DNA of 24,000 nucleotides from Gloeotrichia echinulata CP02 (GCA_038087035.1 CP051187.1:2570443-2594442); one strand, 5' to 3'; positions 2,552 through 18,916 are shown, counted from the first letter of the stretch. The notes: generated from the sequence alone by a model not told the origin. Program-made: numbers and translations.

Positions 2552-3084
2552 ATATAGCGGTTCTCAGTTGAATGCAACACAAAATTATATTGTCGCGTGT
2601 AGGGGCACGGCACTGCCGTGCCCTTACGAGTGTATTGGACTCAACCGAGAACCGCTATATACACAAAATTATATTGTCGCGTGTAGGGGCACGGCACTGC
2701 CGTGCCCTTACGAGTGTATTAAACTCAACCGAGAACCGCTATATACACAAAATTATATTGTCGCGTGTAGGGGCACGGCACTGCCGTGCCCTTACAAGTG
2801 TATTGGACTCAACCGAGAACCGCTATATACACAAAATTATATTGTCGCGTGTAGGGGCACGGCACTGCCGTGCCCTTACAAGTGTATTGGACTCAACCGA
2901 GAACCGCTATATACACAAAATTATATTGTCGCGTGTAGGGGCACGGCACTGCCGTGCCCTTACGAGTGTATTGGACTCAACCAAGAACCGCTATATACAC
3001 AAAATTATATTGTCGCGTGTAGGGGCACGGCACTGCCGTGCCCTTACGAGTGTATTGGACTCAACCAAGAACCGCTATATACAG
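2552..3084 (+). repeat. 84-bp tandem repeat with 6 full units, each carrying a 13-bp-stem hairpin. An inverted partial unit sits at the left edge
   Basis: The unit is aaaattatattgtcgcgtgtaggggcacggcactgccgtgcccttacgagtgtattggactcaaccgagaaccgctatatacac. Units start at 2581, 2665, 2749 and so on, differing by only a few SNPs. Positions 2552-2580 resemble the reverse complement of the unit's 3' part. Confidence 0.95.
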
Positions 3085-3243: not shown

Positions 3244-3299
3244 GAGGATCTGTGGTTCAAATCAATGAAAATCGCTGTAAATAATAAGTGCGTAAAATA

Positions 3300-3565
3300 T
3301 AAAAACGTCTTGGCAGAAGCTGCTACAGACTGCGCGGAACATAAAAACGTCTTGGCGGAAGCTGCTACAGACTGCGCGGAACACGGAAACGTCTTGACGG
3401 AAGCTGCTACAGGGAAGGCGGAAGCTGCTACAGACTGCGCGGAACACGGAAACGTCTTGACGGAAGCTGCTACAGGGAAGGCGGAAGCTGCTACAGACTG
3501 CGCGGAACACGGAAACGTCTTGACGGAAGCTGCTACAGGGAAGCCGGAAGCTGCTACAGGGAAGA
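3300..3565 (+). repeat. Nested 42-bp and 63-bp tandem repeats built around the 13-mer GAAGCTGCTACAG (8 copies)
   Basis: Two 42-bp units are followed by 63-bp units (aaacgtcttgacggaagctgctacagggaaggcggaagctgctacagactgcgcggaacacgg). The block ends about 145 bp upstream of the 3709 start codon. Confidence 0.9.
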
Positions 3566-7309: not shown

Positions 7310-8223
7310 GTTTCCCGCGAACGGGTTTTGTTAATTTGAAAGATGAATATCTAAAAATTATAAATCAGTTTGACGGAAGCTTCAATCCCGCGAACGGGTT
7401 TCATTAATTTGAAAGTCTTCGGCTTTTGAAAAGACTCTGCGGCACTATGGAATGTTTCAATCCCGCGAACGGGTTTCATTAATTTGAAAGTATAATCCCG
7501 TTATAGGGATTCAATAAAAATATGGAGTTTCAATCCCGCGAACGGGTTTCATTAATTTGAAAGCAGAAACTATTTATCAGCCACAGCCAAAGCCATGCTG
7601 TTTCAATCCCGCGAACGGGTTTCATTAATTTGAAAGTTGCTATCAGCAGAATATTCGATGATAAAAAAGTGTTTCAATCCCGCGAACGGGTTTCATTAAT
7701 TTGAAAGTCCTATTTAGGGATTGCTTCAATGAATTAAGGAACTGTTTCAATCCCGCGAACGGGTTTCATTAATTTGAAAGAACAATGCGGGTGTATGGCT
7801 GGTTGTAATTGGGGATGTTTCAATCCCGCGAACGGGTTTCATTAATTTGAAAGCGATGAAGCTGATGAAATTGTTGAATTACAGCCTGTAGGTTTCAATC
7901 CCGCGAACGGGTTTCATTAATTTGAAAGTTGAAAGTGCATCCGCCCGTTATCCCTCATAATCACATTCTTGTTTCAATCCCGCGAACGGGTTTCATTAAT
8001 TTGAAAGTTGGTTTTGGGATGCTTGTCGCCCTTACCTAGTACGTTTCAATCCCGCGAACGGGTTTCATTAATTTGAAAGTTCCCATTAATGTTATCCCAA
8101 ATACCTGATAGCGGTTTCAATCCCGCGAACGGGTTTCATTAATTTGAAAGGCCATAAGCAACCAGTCCACCGGCTGAATCAAAATAGTTTCAATCCCGCG
8201 AACGGGTTTCATTAATTTGAAAG
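7310..8223 (-). CRISPR. CRISPR array 1: 13 repeats (12 full 37-nt repeats plus 1 degenerate distal repeat) and 12 spacers of 34-42 nt
   Basis: On the + strand the repeat is GTTTCAATCCCGCGAACGGGTTTCATTAATTTGAAAG. Full repeats start at 7379 (one mismatch), 7454, 7527, 7600, 7671, 7744, 7817, 7892, 7971, 8043, 8114 and 8187. The degenerate copy with a 4-nt deletion is at 7310-7342. The leader lies on the 8224 side, so the transcribed orientation is minus: CTTTCAAATTAATGAAACCCGTTCGCGGGATTGAAAC. Confidence 0.97.
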
Positions 8224-8563: not shown

Positions 8564-9061
8564 TTAACCCTCATCAGCAGATAGCAAGACAATTGCATAC
8601 AACTTTTGGCTAACCCGAAAGTCAGCAGTAGCAATTAACTGATCAATCAATGGTTTAATAGCTGGAATTAACCCTTGTTTTTTGGCTTGTAGCAAGACTC
8701 CCAACAGACCCGTTACATTTAGTCCATAACTTGTAGCGACTGCTCGTCCTCGGCGTTCGTCCATTAATAGCAAGTCAGCTTTCAGTTCTTTGGATAAAAT
8801 AATTGCTTCGGCTTCTCCTAAGTCAATATTGTCCTGTTTTTCCTGAATTTCTGTAACTTCTTGAGAATTAACAACAGCTATCGTCTGAATCCAAGATAGC
8901 TGTTGTACTTCTACTGCGCCAGGGACAACTTTATCTACACCGACCATCTCGTTATAAACGGCTTGGGGAATGATAACGCGACTATACAACTGACGCAGTA
9001 AATCTAACTGACCAATCGCTGCCAAGTTTGTGATCGGTGATGTGTCGCTAACTATAATCAC
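8564..9061 (-). CDS. PIN-domain protein of the DUF3368 family, a putative toxin
   Basis: 165 aa with a GTG start. The N-terminus IIVSDTSPITNLAAIGQLDLLRQLYSRVIIPQAVYNEM is typical of DUF3368/COG2405. It overlaps the upstream UPF0175 gene by 4 nt (GTGA). Confidence 0.8.
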   Translation of the reverse strand: MIIVSDTSPITNLAAIGQLDLLRQLYSRVIIPQAVYNEMVGVDKVVPGAVEVQQLSWIQTIAVVNSQEVTEIQEKQDNIDLGEAEAIILSKELKADLLLMDERRGRAVATSYGLNVTGLLGVLLQAKKQGLIPAIKPLIDQLIATADFRVSQKLYAIVLLSADEG

Positions 9062-11759: not shown

Positions 11760-13056
11760 GGTTCTTGGGTACTTAGCGTGCTAAAATGTTAAGATATTTT
11801 TTAATAATGTTTAATAAAATAAATTATGAAACGAATAATGACTCAACTCCTAAATTTGCCTGAAGTATTAGTAGAATCAAGCCTACAAGAGGGTCAAGTC
11901 CTAATTCTATCAGTAGGTAAAAAAGCGAAAAGTGCATCGTGCCCACACTGTGGTCAAAACTCAAGACATTTACATCAAAATCAAAAATGTTTAGTGAAAG
12001 ATTTACCGATGGGGGATTTTGAAGTAATACTGAATGTCAATAGACGAAGATTCAAGTGTAAAAAATGCCGAAAAACATTTAATGAAAAGCTAGATTTTCT
12101 AGGAGCAAGAAAGAGGTATACATACCGATATGCGGAATATATTATCAAACAAGTGATTAATAGTAATGTAAGTAATGTGGCAAGAAATAATGGACTAACT
12201 AATGAATAAGTCATATCAATGCTTGAAGATGTAGCTAAAAATGTGATGCCAATAGATGTCAAAGATTTAAGAAGATTAGGAATAGATGAAATTAGTTTGG
12301 TCAAAGGACAAGGAAAATTTATTGTCGTGCTAGTAGATATAGATTCAGGTAAATTGATAGGTTTAGTAAAAGAAAGAAAACAAATTGAAATCAAAAAAAC
12401 CATGAGAATGTGGGGAGAAAAAGTTTTGTCACAAATAGAAGAAGTAAGTATTGATATGACAGGCAATTATAAATCTTTAATTGAGAAGATTTGTCCAAAC
12501 GCCCTTGTAACGGTAGATAGGTTCCATGTTACTAAATTAGTACATGAAGAATTAAATCGAGCTAGGATAGCAGAAAAGAAAATAGCATCTGAGTTAAATG
12601 CCCCGGAAAGAAAAAAAGTATTTGAAAGTTTAAAAGGAAATAAATTTACAATTCTAAAAGCCGAGAATAAGCTCACCGAAAAGCAAAAAGATAAATTAAA
12701 TAGAATTAAACAAGCTTCTCCTTTAATAGCTAGAATGCATTCATTAAAAGAAGATTTTCACAATTTATTTGAAGACAATAAAAATGTGGTAACGGGAACG
12801 CTAGAATTAATCAATTGGTTAAAAAAAGCTGAACCATATTATCAAAGAAGTGTGCAGACAATTAAACGGTGGTTTGGAGAAATAGTCGGATATTTTGAAC
12901 GAAGGACTACCAGTGGAGTAGTAGAAGGAATAAATAATAAACTGAAGTTAATAAAGCGAAGTGGATTTGGATTTAGAAACTTTCGTAATTTTGAGATTAG
13001 AGCTTTACTTTCTTGGCATTATCCTATCAATTTAGCACGCTAAGTACGCAAGAGCC
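11760..13056 (+). mobile_element. ISL3-family insertion sequence (1297 bp)
   Basis: The left terminal inverted repeat is GGTTCTTGGGTACTTAGCGTGCTAAA. The reverse complement of the right end is GGCTCTTGCGTACTTAGCGTGCTAAA. It encloses an ISL3-type transposase. The flanking 8-mers differ (aaagatac vs gtttttgc), so there is no target-site duplication. Confidence 0.9.
11826..13043 (+). pseudogene. ISL3 transposase interrupted by a single in-frame TAA at 12207-12209
   Basis: Track ORFs 11826..12209 (zinc-finger CPHCG...CKKC plus HTH) and 12219..13043 (DDE part: RFHVTKL..., VEGINNKLKLIKRSGFGFRNFRNFEIR) are in the same frame. Only one stop codon separates them. Confidence 0.8.
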
Positions 13057-13346: not shown

Positions 13347-14432
13347 CTAACTGACAGCTTGACTCAAATTGATTGCTGCGTTTAAATCTCGGTCAATTGT
13401 GAAACCGCAGTTACCACACTCAAACACTCTTTCTGATAGCGAGAGCGTTTCTTTTTTGGTTCCGCAGTTAGAGCAGGTTTTGGAACTAGGAAACCATCTA
13501 TCAACTACAACCAAATTAGAACCATACAGTTTGCACTTGTATGTTAATTGACGGCGAAACTCGAAGAATCCCATATCAGTAATTGCCTTAGCTAGTTTGT
13601 GGTTAGCCAACATTCCAGACACATTAAGGTCTTCAATCACTACTGTGCCGTGGTTCTTGGCTAGTAGTGTCGTGAGCTTGTGTAATGTATCTTTTCGGAT
13701 GTTGGCTATCTTTCTATGCAGTCTAGCAATCTTTATCTGTGCTTTTTTCCAGTTAGCTGAACCGATGACTTTATGACGATTCAACCATTGCATTCTTGAC
13801 AGCTTGGCTTCATATTTCTTGTAGGATTTGGCTCCTAAAAAAACTTCACCAGTCGAGAGTATAGCCAGTGCCTTAACACCAAGGTCAACGCCGACAATAC
13901 TCTTGTTGCCTAAATCCTGTTGTTCTACATCAAATCTGAAACTGATAAACCATCTGTCGGCTTGACGAGATATTGTACAAGATTTAGTTAATACTTGTGG
14001 TAATCGTTCATAAGTTTTGAGAACACCAATAATAGGTACTTGAATCTTGTTATTGTCTAAAATTTTGACTGTGCCTTCTAATGTGAAAGAATCACGTTTA
14101 CCTTTCTTTTTAAACTTGGGTACTCCAGCCTGATGGTCAAAACAGCGTTTCCAGGATTCTCGCAAAGCCATCAATGCTTGCTGTGGAGTAGATTTTGAGC
14201 ATTCGTAGTACCATTCGTTTTCAGATTTCACCAATGCCACTAACCATTTGTGCAAGTCAATAGCAGTAGGAAATTTAATCTTAGAACCGGGATTTTCTTT
14301 GTTGTGGTCAAGAATTTGCTTTGTTAAAGCAAGTCCCCAATTCCAAGCATGACGAGCTACTCCACAATGTTTAGCGAATGCTATGCGTTGCTGATTATTC
14401 AGTTTCAATTCAGTTTTGAATCCGAGTAGCAC
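13347..14432 (-). CDS. tnpB: TnpB (OrfB_IS605) RNA-guided endonuclease
   Basis: 361 aa with a GTG start. The split RuvC motifs are GVDLGVK, VIEDLNV and DRDLNAAINL. The zinc finger is CSNCG...CGNCG. The N-terminal FKTELKLNNQQ...CGVARHAWNWGL matches the family. Confidence 0.9.
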   Translation of the reverse strand: MLLGFKTELKLNNQQRIAFAKHCGVARHAWNWGLALTKQILDHNKENPGSKIKFPTAIDLHKWLVALVKSENEWYYECSKSTPQQALMALRESWKRCFDHQAGVPKFKKKGKRDSFTLEGTVKILDNNKIQVPIIGVLKTYERLPQVLTKSCTISRQADRWFISFRFDVEQQDLGNKSIVGVDLGVKALAILSTGEVFLGAKSYKKYEAKLSRMQWLNRHKVIGSANWKKAQIKIARLHRKIANIRKDTLHKLTTLLAKNHGTVVIEDLNVSGMLANHKLAKAITDMGFFEFRRQLTYKCKLYGSNLVVVDRWFPSSKTCSNCGTKKETLSLSERVFECGNCGFTIDRDLNAAINLSQAVS

Positions 14433-14724: not shown

Positions 14725-15018
14725 ATGAGTACGTTATTTTACCTGATCATTTATGATTTACCGGATAGCAAGGCGGCGAATAAGCGGCGGACAAAACTCC
14801 ATAAAATGCTCTCTGGTTATGGAACTTGGACACAGTACAGTGTGTTTGAATGTTTTTTGAGTGCTGTCCAGTTCGCTAAATTGAAGGTGCAAGTTGAAAC
14901 CTTGATTAAACCAGCTGAAGATTCAGTCAGGATCTATGTTTTGGATGCTGGCTCGGTACGCAAAACCATTACTTATGGTTCCGAACAACCTCGACAGCAA
15001 GAGACAATCATATTATGA
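14725..15018 (+). CDS. cas2: CRISPR-associated endoribonuclease Cas2
   Basis: 97 aa. MSTLFYLIIYDLPDSKAANKRRTKLHKMLSGYGTWTQYSVFECFL is a canonical Cas2 ferredoxin-fold N-terminus. The leader and array follow immediately. Confidence 0.9.
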   Translation: MSTLFYLIIYDLPDSKAANKRRTKLHKMLSGYGTWTQYSVFECFLSAVQFAKLKVQVETLIKPAEDSVRIYVLDAGSVRKTITYGSEQPRQQETIIL

Positions 15019-15233
15019 TGGTAATATGATCCAAGTCCAATTTTTGGCAGGGCAAAGCACGGGCGAAAACCCATAACCTCCCGCCAAATCCCCAGAACCT
15101 TGACAATTCCATACTTTCAGCGTTTTCATATCCAATGTAGAGTCTACTACTGAATGCCGGAAACGGACTTTTAAAGTAGTCCTGCCAAAATTGCCGGTAG
15201 GAATGGCTCTATGATTAGGTTCTGGCTGGCGGA
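15019..15233 (+). promoter_or_regulatory. CRISPR leader of array 2
   Basis: The conserved 82-nt core at 15037-15118 (TTGACA at 15100-15105), the block at 15170-15196 and ttctggctggcgga at 15220-15233 are all shared with the array-1 leader at the same spacing from the first repeat (about 115 nt). Confidence 0.75.
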
Positions 15234-16682
15234 CTTTCAAATTAATGAAACCCGTTCGCGGGATTGAAACTTGCCATAGGGGGACTATCCAGAATCCCAA
15301 GAACTTTCAAATTAATGAAACCCGTTCGCGGGATTGAAACTATTCCTAACTACTACACAGGGAATAAAATTTAAGCTATCTTTCAAATTAATGAAACCCG
15401 TTCGCGGGATTGAAACGACAAGCTAAAGGCTCTTGGCATTTCACCCCTAAACTTTCAAATTAATGAAACCCGTTCGCGGGATTGAAACCCCGCAGCAAAA
15501 GTAGGAGGAACATCAAGAACAAGACCTTTCAAATTAATGAAACCCGTTCGCGGGATTGAAACATTTCTCCAGCACGCCTACCGTTAGCGTTAGGGGCCAA
15601 CTTTCAAATTAATGAAACCCGTTCGCGGGATTGAAACACTTCGCGCACTTGGGCACGAAAATAGATATCTTTGCTTTCAAATTAATGAAACCCGTTCGCG
15701 GGATTGAAACAAACTGATGAAACCTACTTGCACTAACTGCAAACTTTCAAATTAATGAAACCCGTTCGCGGGATTGAAACAATTGAGGGATAGCACAAAC
15801 CTGCCTATCCTTACCCCAACTTTCAAATTAATGAAACCCGTTCGCGGGATTGAAACCGCTGTTCTGTCACCGCTAGCCGAATCTAACGCGGCTCTTTCAA
15901 ATTAATGAAACCCGTTCGCGGGATTGAAACATTGCATCCCACCGCTCTTTGGTGGGGATGGGTACTTTTTTACTTTCAAATTAATGAAACCCGTTCGCGG
16001 GATTGAAACATGGCAAGGATTCTGCTAATGTTGTTTTAATCGGTCAGCTTTCAAATTAATGAAACCCGTTCGCGGGATTGAAACATCCAGGTTTGCATCT
16101 CAGTTCCCGTACCACCAGCAACTTTCAAATTAATGAAACCCGTTCGCGGGATTGAAACTGCTAAAATCAGTGCTGGAATCTTAACCAAAAAAAACTTTCA
16201 AATTAATGAAACCCGTTCGCGGGATTGAAACAGGACACTATCGCAACTCTTCTCTCTAGACGACTGGCTTTCAAATTAATGAAACCCGTTCGCGGGATTG
16301 AAACAACTAGCTGACAAGGGTCACTTGGTGGTGTGGTTGGTGGTGTCTTTCAAATTAATGAAACCCGTTCGCGGGATTGAAACCCAGGAACATGAATAGG
16401 AACCTCACAATTTCCCAAACTTTCAAATTAATGAAACCCGTTCGCGGGATTGAAACTATTTCCCATCATTACCAACCCAAGGCTTAATCCGCCTAACTTT
16501 CAAATTAATGAAACCCGTTCGCGGGATTGAAACCTAGCACGAAGTACCCCGAATCCGCATCCGTTCACTTTCAAATTAATGAAACCCGTTCGCGGGATTG
16601 AAACGAGCCGGGGAAAGAGCCAAAGGGGCGGATGATGGGCTTTCGCTTTCAAATGGGGATGTAGAAACCCCATCTTCAACGA
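15234..16682 (+). CRISPR. CRISPR array 2: 20 repeats (19 perfect plus 1 degenerate terminal repeat) and 19 spacers of 33-42 nt
   Basis: The repeat is CTTTCAAATTAATGAAACCCGTTCGCGGGATTGAAAC. Repeats start at 15234, 15304, 15380, 15452, 15526, 15601, 15674, 15744, 15820, 15894, 15973, 16048, 16122, 16195, 16268, 16347, 16420, 16497 and 16568. The degenerate copy is at 16646-16682. The repeat has an internal CCCG-TTCG-CGGG hairpin and an ATTGAAAC 3' tag typical of Cas6-processed class 1 repeats. Confidence 0.97.
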
Positions 16683-16699
16683 AGTAAGATGGGGTAGTT

Positions 16700-17020
16700 C
16701 ATTAGTTCTCAAATATCCTCTAATTACCAGCGTCAACTACCTACACTTCCCTAACGGGTAAGTGTAGGCTTGCGGAAAACCTAGCTTGCTAGGCTCACGG
16801 TACGCAACTAAGAGTTGGTTAGGGCGTAGAGATTTGGTAAGGACAAACGTACAAATATTTCCCTAGTTTGTACACGCCACTTGCTTTAAGCCGGCGAACC
16901 CGTCCAACGCAGTGGCTCCTCTTTGCGGTCTAGTCGTGAATAGAAGATACGCTTGCCAAATTGCCCGAAGGGACTGGATTTATTCCTAAATACAAATTAG
17001 TAATAATTTGGGTTATCCTC
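16700..17020 (+). ncRNA. Candidate omegaRNA scaffold for the downstream IsrB-like nuclease. The 5' boundary is uncertain
   Basis: The region is non-coding and densely structured. Stems lie at 16740-16768 (cctacactt/aagtgtagg), 16780-16793, 16849-16873 (gtacaaa/tttgtac), 16876-16916 (gccacttgc/gcagtggc) and 16964-16972 (ccc-gaa-ggg). Its position directly 5' of the nuclease ORF matches IscB/IsrB loci. Confidence 0.4.
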
Positions 17021-18172
17021 ATGAATCAAAATAATCAAGTTATACGAGTACCAGTAATATCTCCAAAAGGAATTGCACTTATGCCAACCACACCAGCACG
17101 GGCTAGGAAATGGATAAAATCTGGTAAAGCTGTTGGTAAACATAATAAAGTTGGTGTTTTTTACGTTCAATTATTGCGCGAAGCATCTGGACATGAGACA
17201 CAAGAAATAGTAGTTGGCACGGATAGAGGTAAAGCATTTACAGGTATTGCTTTTCAATCAAAGCTGGCGACGATTGCGTTATTTCATGCTTGTTTACCTG
17301 GTTTCTACAAATCCAAGAAAACCAGCAAAGATAGACAGTCTGTGACAGGAAAAATGGAGAAACGCACAGAACTACGTCGTACTCGTAGAGGACAGCGTAT
17401 TAATCGTAAAGTTGCTTTTAAATTACGCAATCACCGAGAAAAAAGGTTTAACAATCGTCGTCAAAACAAGCTACCACCTAGCGTAAAAGCTAACCGAGAA
17501 ATGGAATTAAGAATCTTGTCAGAAATGTCTAAAATAATTCCTATCTCCGAGATTAGAGACGAGTCGTGTGGTGGTAATTCCAAACGGAATGGATTTGGCA
17601 TATCTCCTGTAACAGTTGGGCAAGAATGGTTTAGAGTCGAAGCGTCAAAGCTTGCACCAGTCAAAGAAATAGATTCTTTGGATACCGGGAAATACCGCAC
17701 TCGGCTAGGTCTTGTTAAAGACAAGAAAGATAAATCAAAACAGACTCCAGAAACCCATGCTAACGATGCAATAGCATTAGCATCTACCGCATTTATTCAA
17801 TACAAAGCTTTCCATACCCAAAAAAGTCACGGGCATCATTGGGTTGGGGAATGTGTTGTAACTCCATCACCATTCATTGTGATTACTCGACCTAAATTAT
17901 TTAGGAGAAAATTGCATCAAGAAAACTACTCAAAGGGGGGAATTTTAAAGCGGCAAGGTGGAACAATAACACCATTTGGTTTTCGGTCAGGTGACTATGT
18001 TCAAACCTCTCGCAAGGGAGAAGTAATACGCGGTTGGGTTGGCGGATTTACTAATTCTGGGAAAACCAAAAATATTTCCATCTATGACCACAACTGGTCA
18101 CGTATTGGTCAATTTAATCCCAACAATGTCAAGTTAATAAAACGGAGTACGAGATTATGCGTTGTTGCATAA
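17021..18172 (+). CDS. isrB: IsrB-like OMEGA nuclease (IscB homolog lacking the HNH domain; RRXRR-domain protein)
   Basis: 383 aa from the ATG; the track's 16961 start is TTG. It carries a PLMP domain (ISPKGIALMPTTPARARKWIKSGKAV) and RuvC-I (IVVGTDRGKAFTGIAF). An Arg-rich bridge helix follows (RTELRRTRRGQRINRK...RFNNRRQNKLPPSV), then a RuvC-II region (IPISEIRDES). There is no CxxC/HNH insert. RuvC-III is ETHANDAIALAS, followed by a C-terminal beta-rich domain (FGFRSGDYV...RGWVGGF). Confidence 0.8.
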   Translation: MNQNNQVIRVPVISPKGIALMPTTPARARKWIKSGKAVGKHNKVGVFYVQLLREASGHETQEIVVGTDRGKAFTGIAFQSKLATIALFHACLPGFYKSKKTSKDRQSVTGKMEKRTELRRTRRGQRINRKVAFKLRNHREKRFNNRRQNKLPPSVKANREMELRILSEMSKIIPISEIRDESCGGNSKRNGFGISPVTVGQEWFRVEASKLAPVKEIDSLDTGKYRTRLGLVKDKKDKSKQTPETHANDAIALASTAFIQYKAFHTQKSHGHHWVGECVVTPSPFIVITRPKLFRRKLHQENYSKGGILKRQGGTITPFGFRSGDYVQTSRKGEVIRGWVGGFTNSGKTKNISIYDHNWSRIGQFNPNNVKLIKRSTRLCVVA

Positions 18173-18178
18173 ACTATT

Positions 18179-18251
18179 GCTTGTTTTGTCGCTGTCCTCC
18201 TCCCTCTTCTTGCTGTGCAAGAAAATGGTCGCAGGACGCAACAAAACAAGC
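18179..18251 (+). other. Long imperfect hairpin just after the isrB stop, either a terminator or the element's right-end structure
   Basis: gcttgttttgtcgc (18179-18192) pairs with gcaacaaaacaagc (18238-18251) with one mismatch. Inner stems gtcct/aggac and cttgc/gcaag lie between them. Confidence 0.3.
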
Positions 18252-18274
18252 CCGCAATTCCTCCCAACACCGAA

Positions 18275-18916
18275 TCAGAGATTTCGGTGTGGGACTCCTT
18301 GCGGTTCGAGTTGAAAAATTTGCTCTGCAGTTAAATTCAAATCTCGAAAAGTTGGTGATATTATCCTATCATTACCCCTAAACTGGCTAACCTGATACTC
18401 ACCCTCAACCAACAAGTAAACTGATATAGTTGGTTGTTTAGAATTGCCAATAAACTTTCTTGCACCATTAGCTAAATAATCAACAATCCAGTATTCAGGA
18501 ATGCCAATACCCTCATATTCGCCAGCTTTTTTATAGTAATCATCACGCCAATTTGTACTGACAACCTCAATAACTAATGGAACTGAGGCACCTTGAGTTA
18601 CTGTCGATTCTTTTTTCCATAATGGTTCATTTGCTAAATTATTGCGGTTCAATATCAGCAAATCTGGCAAATAGGCTGATTCACCAAAAAGCGATTTGAC
18701 TAATACTTGTTTGGGGATGGAATAGGGGAGGTTTATTCGTTTAATTTCTGTAGCTAGTTCCAGAGTTAAAAACCCTGTAATTTCTTCATGATCTCCCACT
18801 GGTTGTGCTATTTCAACAATCACTCCATCATGTAATTCGTAGCGTCCCCCGTCAGGTTTCCATTGAATAAATTCTGTAAAATTTACTAATTTGGTTTTTG
18901 GTATAGCTGCAGTCAT
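18275..18916 (-). CDS. Uma2-family (DUF820) putative endonuclease, a paralog of 6529..7158
   Basis: 213 aa. It carries PDLLILNRNNLANEPLWKKESTVTQGASVPLVIEVVSTNWRDDYYKKAGEYEGIGIPEYWIVDY. It is colinear with the other copy at both protein and DNA level, at roughly 70% nt identity by eye. Confidence 0.85.
   Translation of the reverse strand: MTAAIPKTKLVNFTEFIQWKPDGGRYELHDGVIVEIAQPVGDHEEITGFLTLELATEIKRINLPYSIPKQVLVKSLFGESAYLPDLLILNRNNLANEPLWKKESTVTQGASVPLVIEVVSTNWRDDYYKKAGEYEGIGIPEYWIVDYLANGARKFIGNSKQPTISVYLLVEGEYQVSQFRGNDRIISPTFRDLNLTAEQIFQLEPQGVPHRNL

Follow-up and report, generated by a model that had tools for sequence, protein, structure and literature searches.

An IsrB element beside a CRISPR array in Gloeotrichia echinulata is most likely a chance transposon landing

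The DNA considered here, hereafter the window, is a stretch of 24,000 nucleotides from Gloeotrichia echinulata CP02 (GCA_038087035.1 CP051187.1:2570443-2594442), read on one strand and numbered from its first nucleotide. It contains an array of clustered regularly interspaced short palindromic repeats (CRISPR array 2), followed by a trailer, a non-coding leader and the gene of a RuvC-type nuclease, isrB, while a gene of the Uma2 family runs towards them on the opposite strand (Table 1). A first-pass annotation had described array leader, array, trailer, scaffold and nuclease as co-oriented on the + strand, which is indeed the case, and had offered two readings. Either an IS200/605-family element happened to land at the end of the array, or the nuclease is functionally coupled to the array. 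Locus numbers beginning with L are our own.

As judged from its domains, the product of isrB is a full-length IsrB without HNH domain, and the earlier assignment, including its candidate catalytic residues, proved right. The ATG at 17021 is backed by a conserved CATGAA in an alignment of 30 copies. The Pfam family RRXRR matches residues 10-181 (1.6e-35), and DtIsrB (PDB 8DMB) can be aligned end to end over residues 5-378 (E=1.5e-46). In this alignment the PLMP domain (ALMPTTPARARKWI) faces PLMPTTPRKARLLI of DtIsrB, the motifs GTDRG, IRDES and ETHANDA fall on the D, E and H..D residues of RuvC, the Arg-rich bridge helix (RTELRRTRRGQR) on RRNLRRARRYRK, and the phosphate-lock Asn is conserved. 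The two residues with which DtIsrB reads its NTGA target-adjacent motif (TAM), R323 and Q326 (Hirano et al., 2022; PMC9581776), are also kept (SRIGQF here, KRIGQF in DtIsrB). A Pfam search of the open reading frame returned no HNH family, and the alignment to DtIsrB is continuous, without an insert. The NCBIfam model guided_IscB covers the N-terminal half only (profile positions 3-154 of 314; score 77.9, below the cut-off of 175). Homologues of the protein number more than 1200, most of them from Nostocales. Since the RuvC residues, whose loss had been named as the observation that would speak against nuclease activity, are intact in the alignment to DtIsrB, the protein may have kept such (nickase) activity.

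The 289 nt upstream of the start codon can be read as a real omegaRNA scaffold with both IsrB pseudoknots. We wrote its structure after the published IsrB architecture and then scored it on the alignment of the 30 copies, from left end to start codon. The 62 pairs of the model are paired in 95.6% of cases across the copies, against 32-46% when the partners are slid by 1-3 columns; 35 of them show changes on both sides, and the covariation score is 0.338 as compared with 0.04-0.08 for slid partners. None of 500 shuffles reached any of the observed measures. RNAalifold, run on the same alignment, found 24 pairs with compensatory changes. The adaptor pseudoknot covaries from G-C to A-U; in S1 the changes are one-sided and in the nexus pseudoknot there are none, so that these two helices are proposed by analogy, not from covariation. 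RNAalifold had instead paired the 5' end, GTCAACT, with AAGGGAC, in columns that are all invariant; we replaced this pairing by S1 and a nexus pseudoknot between the SL4 loop and AGGGA, which fit the published architecture. In the window copy, none of the covarying helices is broken. The covariation thus bears out the earlier claim of a structured, non-coding omegaRNA leader. Its six stems fared differently from one another: 16740-16768, 16780-16793 and 16849-16873 correspond to SL1, SL2 and SL4, all of them covarying, whereas 16876-16916 belongs to a foreign hairpin, 16964-16972 is better explained as the 3' strand of S2 together with the nexus pseudoknot, and 16668-16694 is part of the trailer and not of the element.

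The foreign hairpin is 45 nt long and missing from most IsrB copies. It occupies the same site in L005, L015 and L032, and is found at two other scaffold sites in L007/L010 and L014/L029. Because 18 Nostocales plasmids have it as well, in ordinary and unrelated intergenic positions (for instance next to vnfK and fldA; plasmid loci L093-L095), it looks like a small dispersed mobile repeat that has invaded the omegaRNA.

The limits of the element became visible in a scan of one genome per species, which yielded 51 loci encoding IsrB relatives, the source genome not being among them. In one locus after another, the resemblance to the window at nucleotide level sets in abruptly at 16731-16732 and breaks off at 18314-18321. 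The left end, GTCAACTACC, opens the conserved block in 37 loci, in all of which the sequence upstream is unrelated; on the right, 34 of 35 loci end in ...AGTTGA, and again the downstream sequence is unrelated. The Uma2 gene provides a further view of the insertion. Positions 18275-18310 are element DNA, which now encodes a foreign tail, LEPQGVPHRNL*, while dozens of Uma2 homologues end in ...LTAEQIFQAGN plus zero to few residues. Deleting 16732-18310 in silico, so that 16731 joins 18311, gives a Uma2 protein ending in ...AEQIFQAGN* (stop codon at 16724-16726), with no duplicated bases. An alternative empty site that keeps GTTGA would make Uma2 end in ...QRW*, as seen in no homologue, and was rejected in favour of the TTGA version, whose ...QAGN* is seen in many. 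As deletion of the element restores the usual C-terminus of the family, we place the insertion between CCAGC and TTGA in the 3' end of the Uma2 gene, three codons before the stop and without target duplication. The element was previously described as fused to the array trailer. This was overstated, given that it begins 49 nt past a putative decayed repeat and 127 nt past the last perfect one, inside the 3' end of Uma2; array 2 lies outside it. Both ends of the element carry subterminal hairpins, and the hairpin core at the right end resembles that at the left (CCTACACT...AGTGTAGG). The right-end region folds as DNA with -36 kcal/mol (z = -7.65), is conserved across loci and shows a compensatory change from CACCG/CGGTG to CACCA/TGGTG. 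No TnpA gene was found inside or beside any IsrB copy.

Table 1. Features of the window, with positions counted from its first nucleotide.
Feature	Position	Strand	Remarks
Whole IsrB element, 1579 bp	16732-18310	+	5'-GTCAACTACC to GGTTCGAG-3'; non-autonomous, ISC1 / IS200-IS605-type
isrB gene (383 aa)	17021-18172	+	PLMP motif ALMPTTP, RuvC-I D, Arg-rich bridge helix, RuvC-II E, RuvC-III H..D, TAM-interacting domain with SRIGQF
Predicted omegaRNA scaffold, 289 nt	16732-17020	+	alignment A1, 30 copies; first base is the left end of the element, last base abuts the start codon
S1	16732-16737 with 16814-16819		scaffold helix
SL1	16740-16768		scaffold helix
Inner stem	16770-16774 with 16803-16807		scaffold helix
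SL2	16781-16792		scaffold helix
S2 (nexus)	16822-16826 with 16962-16966		scaffold helix
S3	16832-16841 with 16952-16961		scaffold helix
SL4	16850-16872		scaffold helix
SL5	16929-16944		scaffold helix
Adaptor pseudoknot	16796-16801 with 16933-16938		5' UCACGG with SL5 loop
Nexus pseudoknot	16860-16864 with 16969-16973		SL4 loop UCCCU with AGGGA just after S2
Hairpin over ribosome-binding site and start codon	17010-17020		scaffold 3' end
Foreign 45-nt hairpin (CACGCCACTTGC...GCAGTGGCT)	16873-16917	+	inserted at the SL4-SL5 junction of the scaffold
Predicted template of 20-nt guide (AATATCCTCTAATTACCAGC)	16712-16731	+	flank DNA: antisense of Uma2 codons Ala-Gly-Asn-stop and 3' untranslated region
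Right-end structured region	18179-18304	+	long hairpin 18179-18251; subterminal hairpin 18252-18304, core CCCAACACCG...CGGTGTGGG
TTGA	18311-18314	+	target site and expected TAM; flank DNA, not element DNA; after the right end in 34/35 loci
Uma2-family gene	18275-18916	-	Pfam Uma2 5.7e-29; last three codons displaced by the insertion
CRISPR array 2	15234-16604	+	19 perfect 37-nt repeats (CTTTCAAATTAATGAAACCCGTTCGCGGGATTGAAAC), spacers 33-42 nt
Putative decayed terminal repeat	16646-16682	+	first 9 nt identical to the repeat; GAAACCC block kept
Trailer hairpin CCCCATCTT / AAGATGGGG	16670-16695		outside the element; in the minimum free energy fold of 16605-16735, z = -1.86
cas2	14725-15018	+	leader side of array 2
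Second CRISPR array (array 1)	7379-8223	-	same repeat as array 2; 12 repeats, one mismatch in the repeat at 7379
DUF3368/PIN gene	8564-9061	-	between array 1 and the Cas3-like helicase

In IsrB systems it is the flanking DNA that templates the guide, which precedes the scaffold on its 5' side (Hirano et al., 2022; PMC9581776). With a guide length of 20 nt, as taken from DtIsrB (PMC9581776), the scaffold boundary places the template 30-49 nt beyond the putative decayed repeat and predicts the ordinary flank-derived guide of an OMEGA element. At the occupied site the guide match is followed by GTCA instead of NTGA, and this site therefore has no TAM; the restored empty site would carry TTGA after the match.

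We estimate a probability of about 0.9 that this is an ordinary non-autonomous IsrB transposon (ISC1-type, IS200/IS605 superfamily), widespread in Nostocales, that was inserted by chance at the 3' end of Uma2 next to the array. The identity of the protein, its catalytic and TAM-reading residues, the scaffold structure, the boundaries, the target site and the absence of array association elsewhere carry this reading, and the first of the two earlier readings agrees with the boundaries, the empty site and the family context. A Y1 transposase supplied in trans would have inserted the element directly 5' of TTGA, without target-site duplication, into a Uma2 gene that by chance converges on the trailer of a decaying class 1 array. 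A + strand transcript from the flank, probably produced by read-through from the array leader promoter, would join a guide of ~20 nt to the 289-nt scaffold. IsrB could bind this RNA and nick DNA with TTGA directly after the guide match, as in an unoccupied allele or in the donor site once the element has been excised. Such nicking would favour retention or homing of the element, while the occupied site, with its GTCA after the match, would be spared.

Several observations weigh against this reading. Rfam, searched over the whole window at gathering thresholds, returned no omegaRNA, HEARO-type or other meaningful family, and over 16400-18500 (E up to 10) it gave only noise, namely miRNA-like matches on the right-end hairpin and CRISPR-DR8 at E=4.5; the RNA assignment therefore rests on our own alignment and the published architecture. 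No other genome yielded a true empty site for this locus, so that the reconstruction rests on the Uma2 C-terminus. No cognate TnpA was identified for the element. The only Y1_Tnp gene seen in G. echinulata lies ~8 kb off, as part of an IS605-TnpB element. The 45-nt insert could impair the omegaRNA, and one strain (L054, GCA_023657325.1) has an extra G in the G run at window position 17834, which causes a +1 frameshift and a called product of 289 aa; either the gene is a pseudogene there, or the assembly has a homopolymer error. Finally, expression and activity of IsrB are predictions from sequence.

A functional coupling would mean that IsrB has been recruited to the array and that array spacers serve as guides, either via an anti-repeat or via chimeric repeat-spacer-scaffold RNAs, as a nickase-branch analogue of the IscB-to-Cas9 transition. 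The co-orientation on the + strand from array leader to isrB would suit such a system, as would the reduction of the class 1 genes to a Cas3-like helicase and cas2 within the window, the absence of any + strand promoter-like or terminator-like site splitting array from element, and the recurrence of the arrangement in all sampled G. echinulata strains. Yet the same 19 perfect repeats are present in all strains, as expected from inheritance within one species, and the sequence directly 5' of S1 is flank derived from Uma2, not a spacer. Both S1 and SL1 pair within the scaffold itself and are intact, as they are in copies without an array. The repeat-scaffold duplex reaches -17.4 kcal/mol, no better than scaffold shuffles (-18.6 +/- 2.7), and 38 scaffolds from other, array-free genomes give -14.5 to -21.8 kcal/mol with the same repeat; the longest exact complement is 7 nt, and no anti-repeat or tracrRNA-like (trans-activating CRISPR RNA) complementarity in the scaffold stands above shuffles or array-free copies. 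The trailer at 16683-16731 was considered as an anti-repeat and rejected: its duplex with the repeat is marginal (-15.8 kcal/mol against -10.8 +/- 2.6, matched by 4.7% of shuffles), and it lies upstream of the guide and outside the scaffold. Within it, the stretch 16683-16714 (GGGTAGTTCATTAGTTCTCAAAT) loosely resembles the reverse complement of the 5' half of the repeat, and may be due to chance or a decayed inverted repeat fragment. A CRISPR array accompanies none of the 51 genomic IsrB loci (fetched flanks of up to 4 kb) and none of 33 metagenome loci found with a degenerate left-end pattern (0/84 overall), a metagenome scan with the exact pattern of the window's left end giving no match. 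Two array-like matches, in L030 and L076, turned out to be a 76-bp tandem duplication and a 15-nt coding repeat. The same left end occurs at no fewer than 47 distinct insertion sites, i.e., at least 47 contexts that are not CRISPRs. Of the three observations that the first-pass annotation had named as reducing the case to a chance insertion, the first two (copies with the same left end in non-CRISPR contexts, and an ordinary flank-derived guide) were thus made, as was the half of the third that concerns repeat complementarity. Because element boundaries, in-silico empty site and family-wide context show a routine landing, we consider the locus a false lead for CRISPR-OMEGA coupling, and such coupling extremely improbable.

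A weaker kind of dependence deserves more credit, although we still put it somewhat below even odds: the insertion would be ordinary, and the guide-bearing omegaRNA would be made only by read-through of the CRISPR precursor RNA (pre-crRNA), with the array leader acting as the promoter of the element. With a flank-templated guide ahead of the scaffold, transcription must start outside the element (PMC9581776). The only sigma-70-like site upstream on the + strand is in the array leader (15001-15030), and a crude consensus scan of 15031-17506 gave no other on that strand; neither was a + strand terminator-like site found between array and element. The array thus appears to be the only evident source of + strand transcription into the element. 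Across 47 distinct sites in L002-L091, an open frame in the upstream flank (at least 80 aa, within 200 nt before the left end, unverified as a gene) is co-oriented with isrB in 25 cases, opposed in 7 and absent in 15, a crude check that hints at a general reliance of the IsrB family on host read-through. Such dependence would be incidental and not a coupling of the CRISPR type. On the other hand, a consensus match is a crude promoter scan, the frames in the count are unverified, and the trailer hairpin, possibly a terminator for the convergent Uma2 gene, might stop or stall transcription. Cyanobacterial promoters, moreover, often have no -35 element. Rather doubtful is the fuller version in which the array serves as transcription unit for the omegaRNA, so that read-through of pre-crRNA, which Cas6 might trim at the last repeats, yields a guide-bearing precursor. 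Were it true, an OMEGA nickase would depend on a class 1 array for its expression, with the spacers not yet being guides, and the physical linkage of arrays with nucleases guided by omegaRNA could naturally begin in this way. It is also unlikely that the copy is an inactive relic, immobile and with a ribonucleoprotein made non-functional by the foreign hairpin and the missing cognate transposase. The 45-nt insert, the L054 frameshift, the record of the exact protein at one place only and the lack of TnpA in any IsrB locus would fit. Nonetheless, the reading frame is intact with all catalytic residues, as are all covarying helices; 8 of 10 differences between strains are synonymous, and the insert sits in a junction that varies in the family, at the same site as in the diverged L005, L015 and L032, which suggests that it is tolerated.

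The insertion is shared within the species. The inserted form of the Uma2 protein is 100% identical to one from Gloeotrichia echinulata, and all 6 places recovered with it (three genome assemblies among them) carry the Uma2-isrB junction; array 2 and cas2 are present in all five contigs that reach far enough. The conservation of the arrangement is simple inheritance within one species. In the nearest relative with an orthologous neighbourhood (L053), the ABC transporter and Uma2 (83% identical) are found without CRISPR island and without IsrB. In four G. echinulata loci, L055-L058, 10 positions deviate from the window, none of them outside 17888-18128 of isrB, and the two non-synonymous ones are G324C and V370L; the remaining ~1340 bp of the element and 130 bp upstream are identical. 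This patch looks like a recombination or gene-conversion tract, perhaps with another IsrB copy in the genome as the donor.

Around the element, the window contains what is left of a class 1 CRISPR island. The repeat of array 2 ends in ATTGAAAC and is of class 1 type. Of the class 1 system only the Cas3-like helicase and cas2 are present in the window, where no effector genes were found. As the second array is on the opposite strand, the two arrays diverge around the cas remnant. The degenerate last repeat proposed by the first-pass annotation is plausible as a decayed terminal repeat of array 2, on account of its identical first 9 nt, a gapped alignment score reached by 1.45% of shuffles and a spacer-like stretch of 41 nt between it and the last perfect repeat; the ungapped comparison gives only 13/37 matches. 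Further contents of the decayed island are a toxin-antitoxin pair, an ISL3 transposase split into two open reading frames, and a TnpB (IS200/605) element between the split transposase and cas2 (13347-14432 (-), with 11826-13043 (+)); the island carries three kinds of insertion sequence (IS). The strains are polymorphic here: TnpB is present in L055, while L054 and L056 have an intact ISL3 without TnpB. Large tandem repeats occur at 1-898, 2577-3083 and 3299-3564 (periods of 123, 84 and 42-105 bp), and the 84-bp unit resembles, by eye only, the flank of the IsrB copy in L046.

A nuclease beside a same-strand array without effector genes mimics an evolutionary intermediate, and here it is most likely a routine transposon landing in a decaying, IS-ridden island. 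The analysis has by-products of its own: a precisely delimited Nostocales IsrB element with a TTGA target, a covariation-supported omegaRNA model for the Nostocales clade, and an example of a small dispersed hairpin repeat that appears to have invaded an omegaRNA scaffold. To these can be added a crude hint of a preference for sites downstream of co-oriented host transcription, which bears on the question of how 5'-guided omegaRNAs are transcribed.

The closest known systems are the IsrBs, with an omegaRNA of ~300 nt (284 nt in DtIsrB, including the 20-nt guide), a 20-nt guide and an NTGA/TTGA TAM, among which those of Crocosphaera watsonii (CwIsrB) and Dolichospermum (DsIsrB) are active (Hirano et al., 2022; PMC9581776). 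With DtIsrB, CwIsrB and DsIsrB the window protein shares the domain order (PLMP, split RuvC, bridge helix, no HNH, TAM-interacting domain) as well as the catalytic and the TAM-reading R/Q residues. Its predicted scaffold of ~290 nt likewise ends at the start codon, with S1, the nexus stem and both the adaptor and the nexus pseudoknots alike, and TTGA stands where the TAM is expected. It is nonetheless another orthologue, of modest similarity to DtIsrB over the aligned region, with extra segments relative to DtIsrB that resemble those of CwIsrB and DsIsrB (PMC9581776), and its scaffold differs from theirs in the additional 45-nt foreign hairpin.

As a transposon, the element is comparable to the cyanobacterial ISC1 elements, which start with 5'-GTCA, insert at N|ATGA-type sites without duplication and have no transposase gene (Kapitonov, Makarova and Koonin, 2016; PMC4810608). 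Like ISC1-1_MA of Microcystis aeruginosa (PMC4810608), it is ~1.5 kb long with a RuvC-type Cas9 homologue as its only gene, starts with 5'-GTCA, carries subterminal hairpins at either end and no transposase of its own, and is inserted directly before an NTGA-type 4-bp site, again without duplication. It differs in its target, TTGA and not ATGA, and in its host lineage, the Nostocales; the copy was found once at this locus.

Type II CRISPR-Cas9 and the CRISPR-associated IscB loci that Altae-Tran et al. reportedly described in 2021 offer a more distant comparison. The window differs from both in having no anti-repeat or tracrRNA-like pairing and a guide that would be fixed by the insertion site. 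It differs further in its array, with the class 1-type repeat and the Cas3-like helicase and cas2 nearby, and adjacency to an array does not recur in the IsrB family. The feature common to all of them is that an RNA-guided RuvC nuclease adjoins a same-strand array.

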